64,000 nt of DNA, taken from the NCBI RefSeq assembly GCF_030013595.1, contig NZ_CP122768.1. One strand, written 5' to 3'. Positions 2,469-40,933 of this stretch are shown here, in pieces. This DNA comes from Escherichia coli. GTDB lineage: Bacteria > Pseudomonadota > Gammaproteobacteria > Enterobacterales > Enterobacteriaceae. A program made the position numbers and the translations under genes. Below the pieces are notes generated by a model. That model was not told the DNA's origin. It worked only from the letters and a program-made list of their open reading frames with translations, and ran no database searches. Every line of letters begins with the position of its first letter. Within the stretch, counting starts at the first letter, position 1.

Positions 2469-3953
2469 ATGCGAAAAATAATTACTCATTTCAAAGTTGT
2501 TTTAACGTTACTTCTACCAGTAACCGTATCTGCCCAGCAGATACAGTGGCAATCCTGTATGGCCAGTCAATTCAACCACTGGTTTGGTGAGGAAAAACCG
2601 TCTCCTGACTTACTATGTGGTTATTTGTCTGTTCCATTAAAATATACAGACACAGGCGGAGATGCTTCTTATGAAAAAAAATCACAAGTCAAACTAGCGT
2701 TGACAAAATTGCCGGCAAAAAGCAAGCATAAAGGAAGTATCCTGATAATAAGTGGTGGTCCCGGGTTACCAGGCATAAATCCTTATATTAACTTTGACTG
2801 GCCAGTCACAAATCTTCGTGAGTCATGGGATATTATTGGATTTGATCCTCGAGGCGTCGGACAGTCCACTCCGACAATAAACTGCCGGCAATCAGATACA
2901 GAGACTCAGGAAAACATAACCGAAAAGCAACAAGTATTAAATAAAATTAATGCCTGTATCCATAATACCGGAGCCGAAGTCATTCGCCATATCGGCTCTA
3001 ACGAGGCTGTATACGATATTGATCGTATTAGGCAAGCCTTGGGGGATAAACAACTGACAGCCGTGGCGTATTCGTATGGAACTCAAATTGCAGCCTTATA
3101 TGCAGAACGTTTTCCCTACAACGTAAGATCTATCGTTCTTGATGGAGTCGTCGATATCGATGACCTGGAGGACAACTTCACATGGCAACTCAAACAGGCA
3201 CAGAGTTATCAGGAAACGTTTGATCGCTTTGCATCCTGGTGTGCGCGTACAAAAAGTTGCCCGCTTTCTTCAGACAGAGATAAGGCAATAACTCACTTCC
3301 ATGAGCTATTATCAAAATTACATCACAAACCTTTATTAGACAGTAAGGGAGAAAATATATCTTCAGGTGAACTCATATCATTAACAACAGACCTTCTGCT
3401 ATGGCGTTCATCATGGCCAACCCTTGCAACTGCCATACGCCAGTTCTCTCAGGGGATTGTCAGTAATGAAATTGAAACTGCGCTCAGTGCTCCGATAGCC
3501 TCAGAAGAGTCAAGCGATGCTTCGGGGGTAATCCTCTGTGTAGATCAGGGGGATGAGCAATTAACACCAGAAGAGCGAAAATCCCGAAAAGACGCTCTTG
3601 CGAATGCCTTCCCGGCTATTAACTTTGACAATGGACGTTCCGATTCACCTGATTTTTGTGAATTATGGCCAATACATAGCGACCTGAACAAAACTCGCCT
3701 GAAAAATACTGTTCTGCCCTCTGGTTTACTGTTTGTAGCACACAAATACGACCCAACAACGCCCTGGATTAATGCCCGTAAGATGGCAGAGAAATTTTCC
3801 AGCCCGTTACTAACAATAAATGGTGATGGGCATACATTAGCTCTCACCGGAGTTAATTTATGTGTAGATAAAGCAGTTGTACATCACCTGATCACTCCAC
3901 AAAAAATAGAAAATATATACTGCCCAGGAAATTCTGAAGCAGAAATACAATAA
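2469..3953 (+). CDS. Secreted alpha/beta-hydrolase fold peptidase (S33 / TAP-like)
   Basis: 494-aa ORF; N-terminal signal peptide; GGPG oxyanion-hole motif (ISGGPGLPG); Ser nucleophile motif AYSYG; occupies the position where K-12 DLP12 has appY. Confidence 0.7.
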   Translation: MRKIITHFKVVLTLLLPVTVSAQQIQWQSCMASQFNHWFGEEKPSPDLLCGYLSVPLKYTDTGGDASYEKKSQVKLALTKLPAKSKHKGSILIISGGPGLPGINPYINFDWPVTNLRESWDIIGFDPRGVGQSTPTINCRQSDTETQENITEKQQVLNKINACIHNTGAEVIRHIGSNEAVYDIDRIRQALGDKQLTAVAYSYGTQIAALYAERFPYNVRSIVLDGVVDIDDLEDNFTWQLKQAQSYQETFDRFASWCARTKSCPLSSDRDKAITHFHELLSKLHHKPLLDSKGENISSGELISLTTDLLLWRSSWPTLATAIRQFSQGIVSNEIETALSAPIASEESSDASGVILCVDQGDEQLTPEERKSRKDALANAFPAINFDNGRSDSPDFCELWPIHSDLNKTRLKNTVLPSGLLFVAHKYDPTTPWINARKMAEKFSSPLLTINGDGHTLALTGVNLCVDKAVVHHLITPQKIENIYCPGNSEAEIQ

Positions 3954-32713: not shown

Positions 32714-33811
32714 ATGAAAAAATTAACAGTGGCAATTTCTGCTGTAGCTGCATCAGTACTGATGGCGATGTCTGCTCAGGCAGCTGAAATTTATAATAAA
32801 GACAGTAACAAGCTGGATCTGTACGGGAAAGTTAATGCCAAGCACTACTTTTCCTCTAACGATGCAGATGATGGTGATACTACTTATGTTCGTCTGGGCT
32901 TCAAAGGCGAAACCCAAATCAACGATCAGCTGACTGGTTTCGGTCAGTGGGAATATGAATTCAAAGGCAACCGCGCTGAATCTCAAGGTTCCTCCAAAGA
33001 CAAAACCCGTCTTGCATTTGCAGGCCTGAAATTCGGTGACTACGGCTCAATCGATTACGGCCGTAACTACGGTGTAGCATACGACATCGGTGCGTGGACT
33101 GACGTTCTGCCAGAATTCGGTGGCGATACCTGGACCCAAACAGATGTGTTCATGACTGGTCGCACCACTGGTGTTGCAACCTATCGTAACAACGACTTCT
33201 TTGGTCTGGTTGATGGTCTGAACTTTGCTGCTCAGTACCAAGGCAAAAACGATCGTAGCGATTTCGATAACTACACCGAAGGTAACGGTGATGGCTTCGG
33301 TTTCTCTGCTACCTATGAATACGAAGGATTCGGTATCGGTGCAACTTATGCGAAATCTGATCGTACCGACACTCAAGTTAATGCAGGGAAAGTTCTTCCT
33401 GAAGTATTTGCTTCCGGTAAAAATGCAGAAGTTTGGGCCGCAGGTCTGAAATATGACGCTAACAACATTTACCTGGCCACTACCTATTCTGAAACCCAGA
33501 ATATGACTGTATTTGCTGATCACTTCGTTGCTAATAAAGCTCAAAACTTCGAAGCTGTTGCACAATATCAGTTCGATTTCGGTCTGCGTCCGTCCGTTGC
33601 TTACCTGCAATCTAAAGGTAAGGATCTTGGAGTATGGGGCGATCAGGACTTAGTCAAATATGTTGATGTAGGTGCAACCTATTACTTCAACAAAAATATG
33701 TCTACTTTCGTTGATTACAAAATCAACCTGCTTGACAAAAATGACTTCACTAAAGCACTCGGTGTAAGCACTGATGACATCGTTGCTGTAGGTCTGGTTT
33801 ACCAGTTCTAA
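32714..33811 (+). CDS. nmpC: Outer membrane porin NmpC (OmpD-like), intact
   Basis: 365 aa from [11 protein letters not shown]; general porin sequence ending in F; lies between Q and the lysis genes on the opposite strand, as in DLP12. Confidence 0.9.
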
Positions 33812-33820
33812 TCTGATTAC

Positions 33821-33861
33821 GAAAAAGATATGTTGCGGGAGGCGTTGCCTCCCCAACATAT
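33821..33861 (-). terminator. Candidate tR' late terminator downstream of Q
   Basis: Long hairpin atatgttgcgggagg..cctccccaacatat followed by a U-run on the minus strand, ~150 nt after the Q stop. Confidence 0.5.
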
Positions 33862-33948
33862 AAGTGGCTCCCTCAAGCCACTTCCTTTAGGAGCACAACC
33901 TTGCTTCTAACTATATAAACCTTCTGTTATATATTACCCTTTATTTTT

Positions 33949-33974
33949 GGGGGCGTTGCAACGCCCCATTTTTA
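33949..33974 (+). terminator. Intrinsic terminator downstream of nmpC
   Basis: Perfect palindrome ggggcgttgcaacgcccc followed by ttttt. Confidence 0.65.
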
Positions 33975-34000
33975 ATAACTTTCAGTAAACAATTGGCATA

Positions 34001-34384
34001 TTAATTAGAGTTATTAACAACGATATCCATCTCTAACCGGATATCTAATGCCATTAACATCCCTTCAATTATGCCCTCAGCCTTCTGTAACCTTTTCCCG
34101 ATATAACCATCAGAGCAGCAATGCTTACCTGCCAGTGACATGAATGTCATACCGACTACATAATAATCTACTAATAAATCGTGCAAATCGCTGTTGTTCT
34201 TTTTCAGACGGGCCATGCACCCGCAAATAATCATCGCGTCATCGTCACAACATTGCGGGCGAGATTTTACTTTTGAAGGAATTAATCCCTTAAAACCGGC
34301 GGCAATGGACGACCAGGTCACATCTTCATGATTATTAGCCGCCCACGCTCCCCAACGTTCAAGAACCATCTGAATATCACGCAT
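34001..34384 (-). CDS. Late antiterminator Q (phage-21 / DLP12 QuuD type)
   Basis: 127 aa from [18 protein letters not shown]; Cys-rich Q-like sequence. Confidence 0.85.
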
Positions 34385-34401
34385 TAACTTTCTCCACAAA
34401 A

Positions 34402-35397
34402 TCAGGCCAGCACACCAATCGCCAGTGCGCGATCGATAAAACGAAATATCAGCTCCAGCTGGGAGCCATACTTCTCTTCAAATGCCACGGTATCCGCATG
34501 CAGTTCGTCGTGGTGTTTTCTGCACAAAGGCAACACAAAAAGGTCATGCGCTTTTGTACCCATTCCACCCTGACCATGGCCTATCAGATGATGCGGATCA
34601 TCAGCTGGCTTTCCACAACATGCACACGGCTGTGTCTTAACCCAGCGCGTGTACTTTTCATTAACCCAGCGGCGACGTTTTGGGCGTAACATAAAAGACT
34701 CCGGCGACTCCGGATCCACTTTCAGCGCCAGCACCTTTTTCGCCTTATCCTGGATGATGCTGGTGGCAGGAACCGAAGGCACAAGGTCACTTTCCCGGGT
34801 AACAGACGGCACAACAGGCTTCGGTAATCTCAGTGCCTTACGGGCTGCACTTTCCGGTAAGGCATCCGCCAGATCATTACGAATCAGCCACCAGCACAGT
34901 TCCGGCATTGTCACAACGTGACTGTCATCAAAACCGAGATCCCGACGCACAACAGACAACACCCAGCGGGCACAGTTATCCGTTGCCATTGATTCCAGCC
35001 GTTCCGTGAACTGATCGCGCAGCTGGTTATCGCAGTGCCAGCACAGACGGATTGCACCCGGAGCGTGTCGCATTGTGGTCATGTTCTCGCTGTGCCAGTC
35101 GGAATGAGGCCACTGGCAGCCTTTTTCACGAAGTAACCAGCTTTCAAGACATTCCACGCCACCAGCACGACGGATCACTGCCTCATTGCGGAACACGGCC
35201 CGAACGGCAGGATCATCCGCCAGCGGTTGTGATGCCGCCGGAACGGCACCACTGGCGAAAGATGAATAACGCTCCGGCTCAGGCTCCAGCAGGACACGCC
35301 CCTGCATAAACAGGGGCATCAGCTCTGAACCTGGCCTGAACAATACGATCCCCATACGCGGGGCAATTTCAGGGGTCAGTAGTGCTCTCACGGTCAC
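34402..35397 (-). CDS. DUF968 / NinG-like protein with HNH-type Cys-His motif
   Basis: C-terminal [25 protein letters not shown] motif; GTG start at 35397 (alternative ATG further in). Confidence 0.65.
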
Positions 35398-35398
35398 C

Positions 35399-36208
35399 TC
35401 AATGAACGGTATCGAGCAGCTTTAACAGCTCAGGGAATCGGGATTCGAAGAAATGCGGCTGTGTCTCGCGCGGATTTGCGGGACTGGTGATGTTCTTGCC
35501 GAACATGCAACCTTTCGCTGTCAGCGACCAGAATTTTTTGATGTTGTTAATCGCTGTACGGCTGTATCGTTCGCGCTGCTCGACGATCCCCAGTTTCACC
35601 ATCTGGTGATATGCCTGATTAGCCGTCAGGCGTATACCATACTGTTTCAGCAGTGCACTCAGTGACAGTGTCGGGCGACTTGAGCCATCGTGTGCATCAG
35701 CAGGAGCATCAATGGCATAGCGCGGTGCCAGATTCGGTAAGCCAACAGCCTCCTGGAGTTTCTGACAGGCACCAAGCACTGAAGAGTTAGACAGGTTTAA
35801 CTCCCGGCGCATAAAGTCCAGCAGGATCACGCCAGCCTGCATCTTGTCAGCAGCCTGTCCGGATAATTTTTCCGGTGCGCTGGTTACCATATCGAAAGTA
35901 CGGATCACCTTCAGATGGAATGACGGGCTGATCCACATTGCATAGGCATACACCAGTTCCTTGCAGACATACGTTCCCCGTTCATTTCCCCCATGAATCA
36001 CACTCACCGGGTCAACACCCAAATTCTGGGTGTTGGTCAATTCATGAACAAGCTCAACAGTTTGTTGGCTGGAAAGAAACTTTCCCGGCTCCTTGGTTCT
36101 GGCATTTGCACCAGATGCTACTGCTGCGCGATGCAGATCGTTCAGGCTGTAACGCCCATAAGCATCACGACGAACTTCAATACCATCAATGACCATCAGA
36201 TTATTCAT
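35399..36208 (-). CDS. KilA-N domain protein (antirepressor-like)
   Basis: N-terminal KilA-N-like region (MNNLMVIDGIEVRRDAYGRYSLNDLHRAA). Confidence 0.7.
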   Translation of the reverse strand: MNNLMVIDGIEVRRDAYGRYSLNDLHRAAVASGANARTKEPGKFLSSQQTVELVHELTNTQNLGVDPVSVIHGGNERGTYVCKELVYAYAMWISPSFHLKVIRTFDMVTSAPEKLSGQAADKMQAGVILLDFMRRELNLSNSSVLGACQKLQEAVGLPNLAPRYAIDAPADAHDGSSRPTLSLSALLKQYGIRLTANQAYHQMVKLGIVEQRERYSRTAINNIKKFWSLTAKGCMFGKNITSPANPRETQPHFFESRFPELLKLLDTVH

Positions 36209-36227
36209 ACTTCGTTTCTCCTCTTGA

Positions 36228-36617
36228 TCAGGCGGCTGCACCCGCCGTTTTCTCGTACTTACTGATAGTGATCTCGACCTTCCCTTTCGGGATAACCGGT
36301 CCCCACTCCACCAGCATTCTTTTCACCTGACTGTCGTCTTCCCACACACCCGCATGGGTCAGGGCGTCAAACAGCGCCTTGTTATAGTTGTCCAGATCGC
36401 GGATCCGGTTATCCGGAGGAAACAACACGATCTCCACTGAAGCAGGTGCCGACGTTGGTTTCGGCAGACGACGTAACTGCTCAACTATTGCTGCGCACGC
36501 CGCGCTCTGGAATTTGCGCCCCGCTGCGCTTATCAGACTCTTACCAGCAAACGCCCCTTTGTTGGGGTGTCGCCAGTACGTGTTCACGCTGGGCGGGAAA
36601 GGCAAGATCAGCTTCAT
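36228..36617 (-). CDS. rusA: Holliday junction resolvase RusA
   Basis: 129 aa, RusA-like sequence with conserved acidic residues. Confidence 0.85.
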   Translation of the reverse strand: MKLILPFPPSVNTYWRHPNKGAFAGKSLISAAGRKFQSAACAAIVEQLRRLPKPTSAPASVEIVLFPPDNRIRDLDNYNKALFDALTHAGVWEDDSQVKRMLVEWGPVIPKGKVEITISKYEKTAGAAA

Positions 36618-36940
36618 ACTTTCAGGCCCCTCTCATGTAACCAGTGGGCTGCACGCAGCCTGGCGTTTTCCTCACCGGCAAGCAGTGCGCGGATAATCCC
36701 GACCGCCTCGCTGTCGTCGTCCTTCACCGCGGTATGAAGAGTTATCCCCCGGGCCACGCCACGCTTTATCGTGATGACGCCTTTTTTCTCCAGTGCGCGA
36801 AGATGCTCCACCGCTGCATTCACCGAACGGTATCCCAGCATGGTTGCCACCTCCTGATTGGTTGGCGGAAAGCCACGTTCTTGCTGGTAAGAAATCAGCA
36901 TATCCAGCACCTGCTGCTGGCATTGAGTTAACGTCGTCAT
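36614..36940 (-). CDS. LexA N-terminal DNA-binding-domain-like protein (no peptidase domain)
   Basis: 108 aa; resembles the LexA winged-HTH domain (QQQVLDMLISYQQERGFPPTNQEVATMLGYRSVNAAVEHLRALEKKGVI). Confidence 0.6.
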   Translation of the reverse strand: MTTLTQCQQQVLDMLISYQQERGFPPTNQEVATMLGYRSVNAAVEHLRALEKKGVITIKRGVARGITLHTAVKDDDSEAVGIIRALLAGEENARLRAAHWLHERGLKV

Positions 36941-37590
36941 GCCGCCATCTCCCTGACCAGTTTTTCCGCCTGCTGGCGAACCTGCGCCAGAAAGGCCTCA
37001 CCACATGCCTCAAGTTCATCGCGCCCGATGTAGCTGATTGCCGGTCCCTTCCAGGTCTTGTCGAAAACAGCAATAGCACCAGCGAAGAAAGCGCCTGTCG
37101 GCACCTGCTTCTCGTCCTTCGGGATAAACCAGGCTGGCAGTTCAAAACCAATACGCCCGCGAATAAAAGCAATATGGTCTGCATCTTCCGGCCACCACAC
37201 TTCGCTGGTGGCAGCTTTGATCAGGAAAACATAGCGCCCGCCTTTATCACGCATGGCACTGGCATGCTTCATGATGTAACGCATGCCGGTGATGTATTGC
37301 CCCTCATGCTGACTGGCGCGGCTGTACGGGGGATTACCAAAGGCAGCACCTTTAAGCTCCGCAAGACGTTCTGACCAGTCATGCGCCAGCGCGTTGTCTT
37401 CCGCAGTGTAATACGCGGCGCATTTGGCGTTATCACCATCAGTAAACAGATCCAGAACAAACGGGCCAAACAGGGTGTTAATTCCCCAGAAAATGTTGTC
37501 CGGCGTGCGCCACTGATCGCCCACTTCCTTCAGTTCATGGGCTGGTTTGTTCCGCAGCTCCACCAGCGCCTGGCAATATTTATTACTCAT
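36937..37590 (-). CDS. Phage N6-adenine DNA methyltransferase (Dam-like)
   Basis: 217 aa from MSNKYCQ; phage Dam-family features (NPPY motif); no adjacent restriction gene. Confidence 0.7.
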   Translation of the reverse strand: MSNKYCQALVELRNKPAHELKEVGDQWRTPDNIFWGINTLFGPFVLDLFTDGDNAKCAAYYTAEDNALAHDWSERLAELKGAAFGNPPYSRASQHEGQYITGMRYIMKHASAMRDKGGRYVFLIKAATSEVWWPEDADHIAFIRGRIGFELPAWFIPKDEKQVPTGAFFAGAIAVFDKTWKGPAISYIGRDELEACGEAFLAQVRQQAEKLVREMAA

Positions 37591-38078
37591 TAAGCCCCCA
37601 CGTAATTCCCTGACAGATACCACTCTTCACCCGATGCAGCGCGCTTGCTGCTTTTCCGTAAACACCGCTCACGACGCGCAAGAAAATTGTTTCGCTCTTG
37701 CTGGGAGTGGCTTTCACGGAATGCCGCCATCCACACCGTTGCAGCACGACGGTATAAGCCCCTGGACTCCAGTTCTTCCGCCTGGCGGGTCAGGCACAAA
37801 ATAACCCGGGGATCGTTAGTGCCGACATAGAAATTGCGCACAGGTCTGGATTCACGAACTGGTTGCGGTTCCGGCTCCTGCGGTATCTCAGTCAGCCGCG
37901 GGAAATGTCTGCGTGTATCCCCTTCACAACGGTGAGCCACACGCCCACTCTGACGTAACTTGCTTGCTGACTGCAGAACGCGCTGTCGTGAGTAACCTGC
38001 AAAAGCATCCGCAATGTCTCCGGAAGTACACCCCGGATGGGCTTCAATGAATTTCTGAACGTCATTCAAAAGACTCAT
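37590..38078 (-). CDS. Hypothetical nin-region protein
   Basis: 162 aa from ATG at 38078; directly follows the replication initiator; no Walker motif. Confidence 0.5.
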   Translation of the reverse strand: MSLLNDVQKFIEAHPGCTSGDIADAFAGYSRQRVLQSASKLRQSGRVAHRCEGDTRRHFPRLTEIPQEPEPQPVRESRPVRNFYVGTNDPRVILCLTRQAEELESRGLYRRAATVWMAAFRESHSQQERNNFLARRERCLRKSSKRAASGEEWYLSGNYVGA

Positions 38079-38080
38079 GA

Positions 38081-39022
38081 TCACCCCCTGAATCCTGCCG
38101 GGATCTGGCTGTAGTCCACGTTGTCGTAACTGGCTTTGAAGTACGGGTCTTCGCGTTTTTCGGTGTACGTGCTGACGGACGGCGATAAGCGCAGGGAAAG
38201 CTCATCCCATTTTTCCCGCAGCTTCGACGGGCTGAGCACGTTACGGCACCAGAACGGATCGCGACTGACGCGGCTGTACATCTCGCAGATTTGTTTATGA
38301 GTACGACCATCCTGCACACACATCAGGCGAATTTCGTTTGCCCAGGCTGTCCAGTTCGGTTCTTTGGGACGAACCACCTCGCCGTCACATTCGGCGGCAT
38401 GCTCGTACAGGGCGATGATTTTTTTCCAGAGCCACTGTGCGCAGGTCAAATCATCCTGCGTCCCCCACTGGCGCTTTTTAGGGCTGAATACAACCGCATC
38501 AGGATGGCGAGTTAAAAAATCCTGTTCAGCCGTCTGCGTGTCCGGTTGCGAAGAGTCCGGACGAGAAGGTTTTTTATCTGACGGATCATGTTTTGATTTT
38601 ACTGACGGATCCCCGCCAGATTCTGACGGGTGAAAACCCGCTTTTTTGCCAGATTTCGACGCATCAAATTTTGACGGGTCAGATTTTGATGCGTCAGATT
38701 TTGACGGGTCAGAATCTGACAGTTGAGAAAATGCCGCTGCCTGAAGCTTCGCAACGTTAAGCTGATAAACATTCGACGCATTGCGGTTACCCTGGCGACG
38801 CGCCTTACGCGTTAACCAGCCTTCTGCTTCCAGCCGTGCGATAGCCGTTCTGACGGTACTCATCCCCGCGCCAATCTGGCGGGCAATGGTTTCAATCGAT
38901 GGCCAGCACACACCTTCGTCATTACTGAAATCAGCCAGGCGGGCCATAATTGCCACGCTGGATAATTTCATGCCTGACGCTGCGCAACCATCCCATACAT
39001 AGCCGGTTAATTTAGTGCTCAT
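38081..39022 (-). CDS. Replication initiator protein (O-like)
   Basis: 313 aa; N-terminal HTH; repeat-encoded linker (DPSKSDASKSDPSKFDASKS) spanning the iterons. Confidence 0.75.
   Translation of the reverse strand: MSTKLTGYVWDGCAASGMKLSSVAIMARLADFSNDEGVCWPSIETIARQIGAGMSTVRTAIARLEAEGWLTRKARRQGNRNASNVYQLNVAKLQAAAFSQLSDSDPSKSDASKSDPSKFDASKSGKKAGFHPSESGGDPSVKSKHDPSDKKPSRPDSSQPDTQTAEQDFLTRHPDAVVFSPKKRQWGTQDDLTCAQWLWKKIIALYEHAAECDGEVVRPKEPNWTAWANEIRLMCVQDGRTHKQICEMYSRVSRDPFWCRNVLSPSKLREKWDELSLRLSPSVSTYTEKREDPYFKASYDNVDYSQIPAGFRG
38575..38725. repeat. Replication origin iterons inside the initiator gene
   Basis: Tandem and inverted copies of ATTTTGACGGGTCAGA / ATTTTGATGCGTCAGA. Confidence 0.7.
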
Positions 39023-39031
39023 GACCGACCT

Positions 39032-39370
39032 CTATTTCCCTGAATTTACGACGAAACTGTTCGAGCGGACTGAAGCACTCATGCTCATAGCCTTCGCGGA
39101 GGTAGATAACCCGTTGTGTTTCCGGTTCCCAACGAATGACTCTGACGGGCACTCCGTAGTGATCTTTGAACCAGCGGTTAACTTGTCGCAAAGGACTGTC
39201 TCCTTCTGCCGGTTGAAATCCCCCACAGCCCACTCTGCAAAGCTGTGGGTTACAATTTCCCTGTCACCTGGTACATTCACTGCATAGCAATATTCCACCT
39301 TCGCTTTTCCACCCGGTACAGGAAGCGCAATCAGTTGCGAGCGACGGTAGTGTGTTGTTAAACTGTTCAT
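39032..39370 (-). CDS. YmfM-like protein
   Basis: 112-aa ORF between the YmfL-like gene and the replication gene; the C-terminal half is low-complexity and overlaps an alternative ORF. Confidence 0.45.
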
Positions 39371-39936
39371 GCGTTAGTTTCTCCACAACCAGAAGCAATC
39401 GACGCCACGACGCCCGGAGCTGCACACTCGCGGGCGTCATTACTTTCTGAAATGCAAAAGATTTTGTAGACCAGTGCTGCATGCTCCTGCAGCTTCGAAA
39501 TTGAGAGATACAGCTCGTCGTTAATTGCTGTCTTCTCATGCGGTTCCACTACACCGTCTTCGATTGCTGAACGAATCTGTTTTGAATAACTGCCGATCTG
39601 TTCAATGACTTCCAGCAGACGCTGGTTAATATCGGCGTTGTCCACATCCTCGACGTCAGGAAGCGACACAAAGACGCCATTTGCAGACTGCGCCACAGCA
39701 TCAGCAATGAAGTGAGTGCCACCAGCACGCTGTAAAACCATTGCCCATCCCAGCGGGAAAATCTGATCGCCATCTGCACGAAGGCGGTTGAATAAAGCGT
39801 TTTCTGTTACATCGAGCCAGTCAGCCGCTTCAGCGTAACCACCCGGCAACGCCGCGATAGTTTTTCTGACAGCTTTCACGTACCACTCAGGCTGTTTTTC
39901 TATTTTCCAGTGATGCTTACCCACGATTAGCCTCAT
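39367..39936 (-). CDS. YmfL-like early regulatory protein (cII position)
   Basis: 189-aa ORF immediately downstream of cro. Confidence 0.55.
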
Positions 39937-39967
39937 CGTTCTGTGGTTAAAAATTGAAAGTGTTCTG

Positions 39968-40168
39968 CTAATCTTTCGGATAGATATCCGGTCTTAAGTC
40001 AGATTTCGTAATTGCACCTGACGTGCATTGCTCAAGTTTTTTAGCCAGCACAAAACTGGCTTTTTTATAGCCATTGAAAACCAGCCGTAAGTAGCCAGGA
40101 GTTGAGCCAACTTTTCCGGCCAACTCGCCCTGCTGTTCTTTGGTTAAAGAGTCCCAATACGCTTTCAT
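39968..40168 (-). CDS. cro: Cro-like repressor
   Basis: 66 aa from ATG at 40168, divergent from cI across the operator region. Confidence 0.7.
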   Translation of the reverse strand: MKAYWDSLTKEQQGELAGKVGSTPGYLRLVFNGYKKASFVLAKKLEQCTSGAITKSDLRPDIYPKD

Positions 40169-40171
40169 ACA

Positions 40172-40243
40172 ATATGTACCTCCGGTGTACATATTACATG
40201 ATTGAAATGAACCTTCAAGACACTTGTACCTTAACGGTACAAG
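40172..40243. promoter_or_regulatory. OR operator region (pR / pRM) with two palindromic operators
   Basis: atatgtac-N7-gtacatat at 40172-40194 and cttgtacc-ttaac-ggtacaag at 40223-40243, between the divergent cro and cI starts. Confidence 0.7.
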
Positions 40244-40258
40244 GGTTTTAATTTCGTT

Positions 40259-40933
40259 ATGAAAACAATCCATGACATCCGGCGGTCTAACGCCCGAAAA
40301 CTGAGAGATGGTGTTGGAGGGAATTCTTCCTTTGCCACTATGATTGATCGCGAGCCAACCCAGACCAGCAGGTTTATGGGAGATGGTGCTACTAAAAATA
40401 TCGGTGACAGCATGGCACGACACATCGAAAAATGTTTCGACCTGCCTGTCGGATGGCTCGATCAAGAACACCAGACAACGAACATCACAAAAAAACCTGA
40501 TGTTTCAATCACTAATAAACAAATCACATTAGTCCCTGTCATATCATGGGTACAGGCCGGAGCATGGAAAGAAGTTGGATATTCTGAGGTTGATTTGAGC
40601 ACAGCAGAAACGTATCCCTGCCCTGTACCCTGTGGGGAAATGACTTATATCTTGCGGGTGATAGGTGATTCAATGATTGATGAGTACCGCCCGGGAGACA
40701 TGATTTTTGTCGATCCTGAAGTACCTGCCTGCCACGGTGACGACGTTATTGCATTGATGCACGATACAGGTGAAACCACCTTCAAAAGGTTGATAGAAGA
40801 TGGGACACAGCGTTATCTCAAAGCGTTAAACCCAAACTGGCCTGAGCCTTACATTAAGATCAACGGTAATTGCTCTATAATTGGAACTGTGATTTTCTCA
40901 GGAAAACCAAGAAGATACAAAATCAAAGCCTAA
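40259..40933 (+). CDS. cI: CI-like repressor (LexA-like S24 peptidase family, e14 YmfK type)
   Basis: 224 aa; N-terminal HTH and C-terminal S24 autopeptidase domain (VIGDSM Ser motif). Confidence 0.85.
   Translation: MKTIHDIRRSNARKLRDGVGGNSSFATMIDREPTQTSRFMGDGATKNIGDSMARHIEKCFDLPVGWLDQEHQTTNITKKPDVSITNKQITLVPVISWVQAGAWKEVGYSEVDLSTAETYPCPVPCGEMTYILRVIGDSMIDEYRPGDMIFVDPEVPACHGDDVIALMHDTGETTFKRLIEDGTQRYLKALNPNWPEPYIKINGNCSIIGTVIFSGKPRRYKIKA

Follow-up and report, generated by a model that had tools for sequence, protein, structure and literature searches.

A 64,000-nucleotide stretch of Escherichia coli DNA (assembly GCF_030013595.1, contig NZ_CP122768.1; here called the window, whose coordinates are used throughout) holds a lambdoid prophage at the tRNA-Arg gene beside fimZ. 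Within this prophage, the gene for an O-like replication initiator carries inside its own coding sequence an array of short palindromic repeats followed by an AT-rich block, and this element, at positions 38563-38724, is most probably the replication origin of the prophage, laid out like the origin of phage lambda (ori-lambda) inside gene O. We favor a lambda-type origin because the element combines dyad sites with a candidate unwinding element beside them and is inherited together with the DNA-binding domain of the initiator. A preliminary description of this DNA had already pointed to the likeness with the lambda origin, and the features expected of such an origin at the sequence level were looked for and found. 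RefSeq labels the gene only as a "helix-turn-helix domain-containing protein" and has no origin annotation here.

The initiator gene (38081..39022, minus strand) encodes a protein of 313 amino acids and was assigned from its open reading frame (ORF) and from PHROG, Pfam, blastp and AlphaFold results. Its match in PHROG is family 391 ("replication initiation O-like"), with an E-value of 4e-135. Its N-terminal domain (N-domain; codons 1-100, 38723..39022, minus strand) is a winged helix with a Pfam HTH_36 match at amino acids 23-70, and it is presumed to be the module that recognizes the repeats. AlphaFold gave predicted local distance difference test (pLDDT) values of 80-91 for amino acids 1-100, below 50 for amino acids 104-184, and of 86-94 for the C-terminal domain (C-domain), in such a way that the linker (amino acids 101-184, approximately) is predicted to be disordered and the C-domain (approximately 185-280) is predicted to be helical and lambda-O-like. 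A blastp comparison with lambda O gave an E-value of 3e-26 over amino acids 70-277, the C-terminal half. When solved structures were searched by sequence and by fold, only generic MarR-like winged helices were found to resemble the N-domain.

The preliminary description had placed repeats inside the initiator gene, at 38560-38730, and they were found there by two procedures. Tandem Repeats Finder reported positions 38650-38713 with a period of 15, 4.3 copies and 81% match, and a search for direct and inverted repeats detected the same direct family, with less exact copies as far as 38579, together with numerous inverted pairs. The repetitive DPSKS/DASKS linker that the array had been said to encode was also recovered, with a peptide reading ...SDSDPSKSDASKSDPSKFDASKS..., and the repeats correspond to amino acids 102-152, the start of the disordered linker. 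The unit proposed at that time, ATTTTGACGGGTCAGA, corresponds to real repeats, but a comparison with relatives showed its register to be off, as its center, GACGGGTC, is a variable spacer codon (CCG, GCA, ACG or GGG, among others). What is conserved is a palindromic core of 11 bp, TCAGA-T/A-TCTGA, which straddles two of those units and reads TCA(G/A)A-A-TCTGA on the coding strand. The inverted copies noticed earlier are accounted for because each core carries an internal dyad.

The anatomy of the element is described here in the coding direction, this is, with decreasing window coordinates, and its iterons and AT-rich block are given on the minus strand. Iteron 1 (38709..38719, TCAGATTCTGA on the coding strand) is a perfect 11-bp palindrome that matches the plus strand too. 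It is followed, 15 bp apart, by iteron 2 (38694..38704), and then by iteron 3 (38679..38689), both with the sequence TCAAAATCTGA, by iteron 4 (38664..38674, TCAAAATTTGA) and by iteron 5 (38649..38659, TCGAAATCTGG), which is degenerate. Iteron 6 (38616..38635, TTTCACCCGTCAGAATCTGG, including an extended context that is kept in 68 genes) is isolated, in such a way that five of the six palindromes show a 15-bp spacing and the sixth is 33 bp from iteron 5. On the promoter-distal side of the iterons, after a GGGG, we found an AT-rich block (38563..38612), a candidate DNA-unwinding element formed by GATCCGTCAGTAAAATCAAAACAT and GATCCGTCAGATAAAAAACC, two units of 24 bp at 38611-38567 that both start with a Dam site (the GATCs are at 38608 and 38584) plus a half-iteron, CGTCAG. 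No other 40 bp of the gene are as unstable as 38563-38603 (-48.3 kcal/mol; regional mean -57.4, standard deviation 4.0), and the family consensus of the block has 34% GC versus 52% for the gene. This GATC-bearing block was absent from the preliminary description, though it falls within 38560-38730. The promoter-distal edge of the element lies in a zone of mosaic exchange (38544..38580, not assigned to a strand), where the C-domain module starts. A terminator-like hairpin (CGGGTGAAAACCCG plus a T-run, 38627-38640, plus strand) is located between iterons 5 and 6, antisense to the initiator gene; it was rejected as an origin feature, being confined to this lineage and not kept in the homologues inspected. 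Nothing convincing as a site for the integration host factor was found in the origin.

The clustering of the core was measured by searching the whole window for TCARAATCTGR with up to one mismatch. Six sites were found in 38616-38719, and four single-mismatch matches elsewhere in the 64 kb. Shuffled versions of the window yielded 4.0 ± 2.0 matches, and the observed 11 were reached in none of 100 shuffles.

The distribution of the array was studied in a comparison set of eight phage genes and 66 genome loci, from around 30 genera of Enterobacterales. The array was present in all the 69 genes that share the N-domain, with N-domain identities of 56-100%, whatever their C-domain. These 69 genes contain 329 sites in the linker (nucleotides 270-600) versus a single one in the other 40.6 kb, and the 66 genome loci contain 314 linker sites versus 24 in the other 307 kb. 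The copy number is usually 4-6, with spacings of 15 bp (166 times), 30, 33 and 48 bp, all of them multiples of 3. In an alignment of the genes (A2), the 67 HTH_36 members, which are all except mEp460_4F5 and lambda, carry the array without exception, and their C-domains belong to at least three types (Phg_2220_C in 52, lambda-O-like or other in the rest). Among the variants observed, the array of Tatumella saanichensis (L071, nucleotides ~2820-3100) has grown into a higher-order repeat of 60 bp, present at least four times and encoding a 20-amino-acid peptide repeat, and the Proteus genes (L067 and L068) have three 24-bp GATC-headed AT-rich units and not two.

Two phages show where this inheritance begins and ends. 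The gene of mEp460_4F5, an E. coli phage, matches only positions 1-500 of the query (window 38081-38580), with 96.4% identity, corresponding to the C-domain; this phage has the same yfdN-like, dam, lexA-like and rusA genes downstream, an unrelated N-domain and, the motif being absent, its own 23-bp repeats instead. The gene of phiNP matches only positions 464-941 (window 38544-39021), with 82.9% identity, corresponding to the N-domain plus the origin. The two breakpoints are both located at 38544-38580, on the distal margin of the AT-rich block. These data show that N-domain, iterons and AT-rich block are co-inherited as one specificity module, the array going with the N-terminal DNA-binding domain whatever the C-domain is. 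As a positive control, the same tool recovered the four annotated iterons of lambda, which occupy the equivalent relative position, in the linker between domains, and Min27, mEp460 and lambda each have a repeat set of their own at the same position. The repeats of mEp460_4F5 are 23-bp units in 4-5 copies (L008, 2034-2149), those of Min27 are three copies of GGGGTGGGGCAGGAGCTGCCC (L009, 1727-1792), and those of mEp460 are units of around 24 bp (L010, 1703-1807). The repeat sets of these three phages are likely to be unannotated origins.

Part of this DNA was studied before in a different context. In E. coli K-12, genomic SELEX (systematic evolution of ligands by exponential enrichment) with the LysR-type regulator SrsR (YgfI) gave its top peak in the "yfdO/yfdP spacer" of the CPS-53 prophage, with an intensity of 1206 versus 270 or less at nine other sites (PMC9181523). 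In this 2022 study, DNase I footprinting showed a protected region of 66 bp with four boxes, TCAaATTTTGa, TCAGATTTTGa (twice) and TCAGAgTcTGa, SrsR raised the yfdONMLK mRNA, and the site was taken as an intergenic operator, an origin being unmentioned and the word "replication" appearing only in a gene description (PMC9181523). The region of the SrsR box (TCAGATTTTGC) is the same DNA as the element described here: the four footprinted boxes are iterons 1-4, iteron 1 being the fourth box (PMC9181523), and the K-12 array is near-identical to that of the window, with one base different in box 4. The box and the SELEX peak coincide with window positions 38660-38725 (L082, 560-720, in K-12 CPS-53).

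The array could then be primarily an operator for the host SrsR, activating yfdN, dam and the genes onward, with no origin in it. The strength of the SELEX peak, the footprint and the mRNA increase speak for this explanation, as does the fact that srsR is a core gene of E. coli, present in 5425 of 5426 genomes. We nevertheless consider it unlikely. Unlike in the published operator view, the boxes lie within an O-like gene, and across genera they go with the phage N-domain and with neither the host nor the genes downstream: prophages of Proteus, Providencia, Yersinia, Erwinia, Pantoea and Tatumella, among others, have retained the array, and the motif is missing from mEp460_4F5 despite its downstream genes. 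The site is intergenic in K-12 only owing to a deletion, as CPS-53 retains iterons 1-6 and the AT-rich block and has lost the equivalent of window positions ~38790 to ~42110, with the N-domain, cII, cro and cI; in intact prophages it is intragenic, some 300 bp into the O-like gene, and a search of 38300-39100 for sigma-70-like promoters found none. Moreover, other SrsR targets match the box at only 7-9 of the 11 positions and end in GC and not in GA (PMC9181523), and the conserved AT-rich GATC block is left unexplained. We regard SrsR binding as a secondary interaction and not as the reason for the array, since the sites travel with the phage N-domain through many genera, are intragenic in intact prophages and are lacking in an E. 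coli phage that shares the downstream genes, and since the AT-rich block is not accounted for. SrsR was also examined as a possible relative of the initiator, and no similarity was found (E-value 0.93).

The K-12 gene is found in two pieces. CPS-53 (L082) holds the origin and the C-terminal part, with the break at the position equivalent to 38789 in the window, and the e14 prophage (L080, 8205-8440) holds codons 1-77 only, fused to unrelated sequence. The two breaks lie within around 3 bp of each other (window ~38789-38792), a closeness that points to a single exchange between these prophages in the past.

Other roles in cis, such as an mRNA structure for the translation or decay of O, a recombination joint, or autoregulation or incompatibility without origin firing, seem to us quite improbable. 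In their favor, the RNA of the stretch folds better than shuffled versions (z = -4.8), the mosaic breakpoints are at the edge of this stretch, and plasmid iterons also mediate copy control. However, a single unit, with arms of 5 bp and a center of 1 nucleotide, cannot form an RNA hairpin, and both copy number and spacing (15, 30, 33, 48 bp) vary, with no long-range pairing kept. No Rfam family was detected at threshold, the best one, mir-5880, being a chance hit with 30.7 bits against a cut-off of 97 bits, and an RNA element was rejected, the good folding following from the palindromes. Recombination is to be expected at a module border where the DNA is conserved, and this does not have to make it the function of that DNA. 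In the early right region, where no systematic search was made, we noticed no second candidate for an origin.

Codon usage provides a further line of evidence for function at the DNA level. TCA and TCT together make up 86% of the serine codons in the linker, versus 22% in the N-domain, and AAA makes up 92% of the lysine codons, versus 58%. The commonest codon at conserved residues reaches a frequency of 0.91 in the block formed by iteron 6 and the AT units, versus 0.53 in the N-domain (Mann-Whitney P 6e-7), and the aspartate codons of the AT units are GAT in 68 of 68 and 61 of 61 genes, keeping both GATC sites. The N-domains of the 69 genes are saturated at synonymous sites, and the synonymous positions of the linker are near-fixed. 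Relatives from Klebsiella, Trabulsiella and Tatumella keep the 15-bp DNA motif with the peptides SESEP, SESGR or GPKSGLSESEG, and in L076 and phiP27 CACCCGTCAGAATCTG is unchanged across a compensated frameshift that converts FHPSESGG into FTRQNLTP. As judged from these comparisons, selection is acting on the DNA and not on the peptide, because synonymous sites are near-frozen and the motif survives a frameshift that changes the peptide. The linker is predicted to be disordered, and therefore a constraint on the peptide is unlikely; linkers of this kind are normally poorly conserved. The proposal that the repeats are a by-product of in-frame duplication in a low-complexity linker, with no function in the DNA, would account for its Ser/Asp/Lys/Pro-rich composition and predicted disorder, for copies in frame at multiples of 3 and for whole 15-bp units gained or lost between near-identical genes (seven in 733R5, five in Kp4871), but it is rejected as extremely improbable by the codon statistics, by the compensated frameshift and by a simulation in which synonymous recoding of the array peptide gave a mean of 0.42 sites and a maximum of 4 in 20,000 trials, versus the 6 observed.

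In lambda, the origin consists of four iterons and an AT-rich region, the N-domain of O binds the iterons and its C-domain recruits P-DnaB. Like ori-lambda, the element of the window is located in linker-coding DNA, with tandem dyad sites and a promoter-distal AT-rich region, and, like lambda O, the initiator has a homologous C-domain and an N-domain that forms with the iterons one exchangeable module. Unlike in lambda O, the N-domain is HTH_36 and not Phage_rep_O (PF04492), which is missing among the matches of the window protein with E-values up to 0.01 and is matched by lambda O with 6e-36. The lambda iterons (ATCCCTCAAAACGAGGGA, 18-19 bp, spaced 20-24 bp) are also different from the TCARAATCTGA core of 11 bp with a period of 15 bp, and the window motif is absent from the lambda locus. 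Further differences from ori-lambda are the number of sites (six, with one isolated), the two GATC-headed 24-bp repeats that make up the AT-rich part, and the lack of a following P gene. The element would then work like ori-lambda without belonging to the same sequence family, N-domain and iterons being non-homologous to those of lambda. GATC-containing AT-rich repeats adjoin the initiator sites also in oriC, with its 13-mers, and in P1 oriR; the window likewise has GATC-headed AT repeats beside its sites, in this case as 24-bp units that include a half-iteron.

The general rule for lambdoid phages is that iterons and an AT-rich tract are found in the middle of O (PMC7466680), and lambda, P22 and L have distinct iteron sets inside their initiator genes (PMC8022706). 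The origin of phage L, also inside the initiator gene, has six imprecise 11-bp repeats, TGTCCAACGGA (PMC8022706). The window element is similar to these gene 18 origins of P22 and Salmonella phage L in having short intragenic iterons that differ between distant initiators, and to that of L also in having six 11-bp copies, whereas its iteron sequences differ from theirs, and P22 and L have a DnaB-type helicase (gene 12) beside the initiator that the module of the window lacks. The O protein of the Shiga toxin phage "P27" of PMC7466680 was not equated with the phiP27 gene of our set (L17, NC_003356), as the former is described in that paper as lambda-like and the latter has an HTH_36 N-domain.

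A lambda-type mechanism can be proposed for the element. The N-terminal winged-helix domain, probably as dimers, would bind the six 11-bp palindromes, and the resulting nucleoprotein complex would destabilize the adjoining AT-rich block with its two GATC-headed 24-bp units. The C-terminal lambda-O-like domain would then recruit the helicase through host factors; we propose this direct use of host factors because genes for P, DnaC and DnaB are all missing from the module. As in lambda, the early right operon would be transcribed across the site, and Dam methylation may play a role.

Several observations weigh against a lambda-type origin at this place. No helicase or helicase-loader gene (P, DnaC-like, DnaB or gene 12) was recognizable in the module or in the early right operon, 33000-40500. 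The AT-rich block is short and just moderately AT-rich in this window. No DnaA box was found in or beside the array, the sole match being one with a single mismatch at 38422, around 140 bp off; a plasmid-type iteron origin dependent on DnaA was also considered and discarded, with no DnaA box near the iterons. The 15-bp period puts neighboring sites on near-opposite faces of the helix, and at this spacing a wrap similar to the O-some of lambda, where the spacing is around two helical turns, is not obviously possible. The codon statistics were obtained with related sequences, which are not phylogenetically independent. Finally, the only protein experimentally shown to be on iterons 1-4 is the host SrsR, in K-12 CPS-53 (PMC9181523).

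The prophage extends from around 26000 to around 47000, with an integrase annotated as intD, and its gene order is cI, cro-like, cII-like, a small ORF, the O-like gene, yfdN (PerC family), dam, lexA-like, rusA and, further on, Q. It appears to be mosaic, combining early genes of the CPS-53 type (yfdN-yfdT) with genes named in RefSeq after DLP12 (essD, rrrD, rzpD, bor and nohD). The gene calls just upstream of the initiator, at 39012-39370, are in conflict: RefSeq has a DUF4222 ORF of 59 amino acids that overlaps the start of O, and in another frame there is an ORF of 112 amino acids (39032-39370) that matches PHROG 1170 with an E-value of 6e-70 and whose PhiR29_1 counterpart is annotated as a YmfM-like hypothetical protein. 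The Dam-type methyltransferase gene of the window is at 36937-37623, with yfdN between it and the initiator gene. In a survey of 58 related loci, a lambda-P-like gene was found in two and a DnaC-like gene in three, and an adenine (Dam-type) methylase gene was found in 36, in most cases with its start at the end of the initiator gene or immediately behind it.

The initiator gene or fragments of it are found in 3355 of 5426 complete E. coli genomes, in 1575 of them near full length. It is 98.6-99.9% identical in PhiR29_1, SfII and SfIV, which are isolated phages where it is the only recognizable replication function. The records of the isolated phages with the same module list their own hosts, and the SfIV genome paper leaves an origin unmentioned. 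Small plasmids of PLSDB with the initiator as sole replicon were also sought; the 15-kb matches turned out to be excised e14, with a truncated gene and no iterons.

The arrangement is a textbook one, and this origin would be an unannotated variant of a well-known kind. Three of its traits are unusual: a module without a loader, a nearby dam gene beside GATC sites that are fixed, and iterons occupied by a transcription factor of the host. It is a tentative and rather doubtful proposal that firing is controlled by methylation or SeqA in the loader-less module and that, in addition, SrsR gates prophage replication or drives the downstream genes from the origin. If both were true, the origin would be a point of cross-talk between host and phage in two ways that lambda does not show, through SrsR, which responds to stationary phase and stress, and through Dam methylation or SeqA. 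Phage origins are also attracting interest as triggers of defense systems; LmuB of the Lamassu system is enriched at the iterons of lambda (bioRxiv 10.1101/2025.04.02.646746).

The gene is widespread in prophages of Enterobacterales and includes those of the Shigella serotype-converting phages SfII and SfIV, and the definition of the iteron core, the AT-rich element and the boundary of the module gives this group of phages an origin that can be tested, as well as a sequence-based rule for predicting replication specificity and incompatibility. It also offers a clean example of overlapping cis constraints in the DNA that freeze the synonymous sites of a disordered linker. For the host, the top SELEX target of SrsR and much of the "SrsR box" consensus would correspond to a decayed phage origin, which matters for reading the SrsR regulon.

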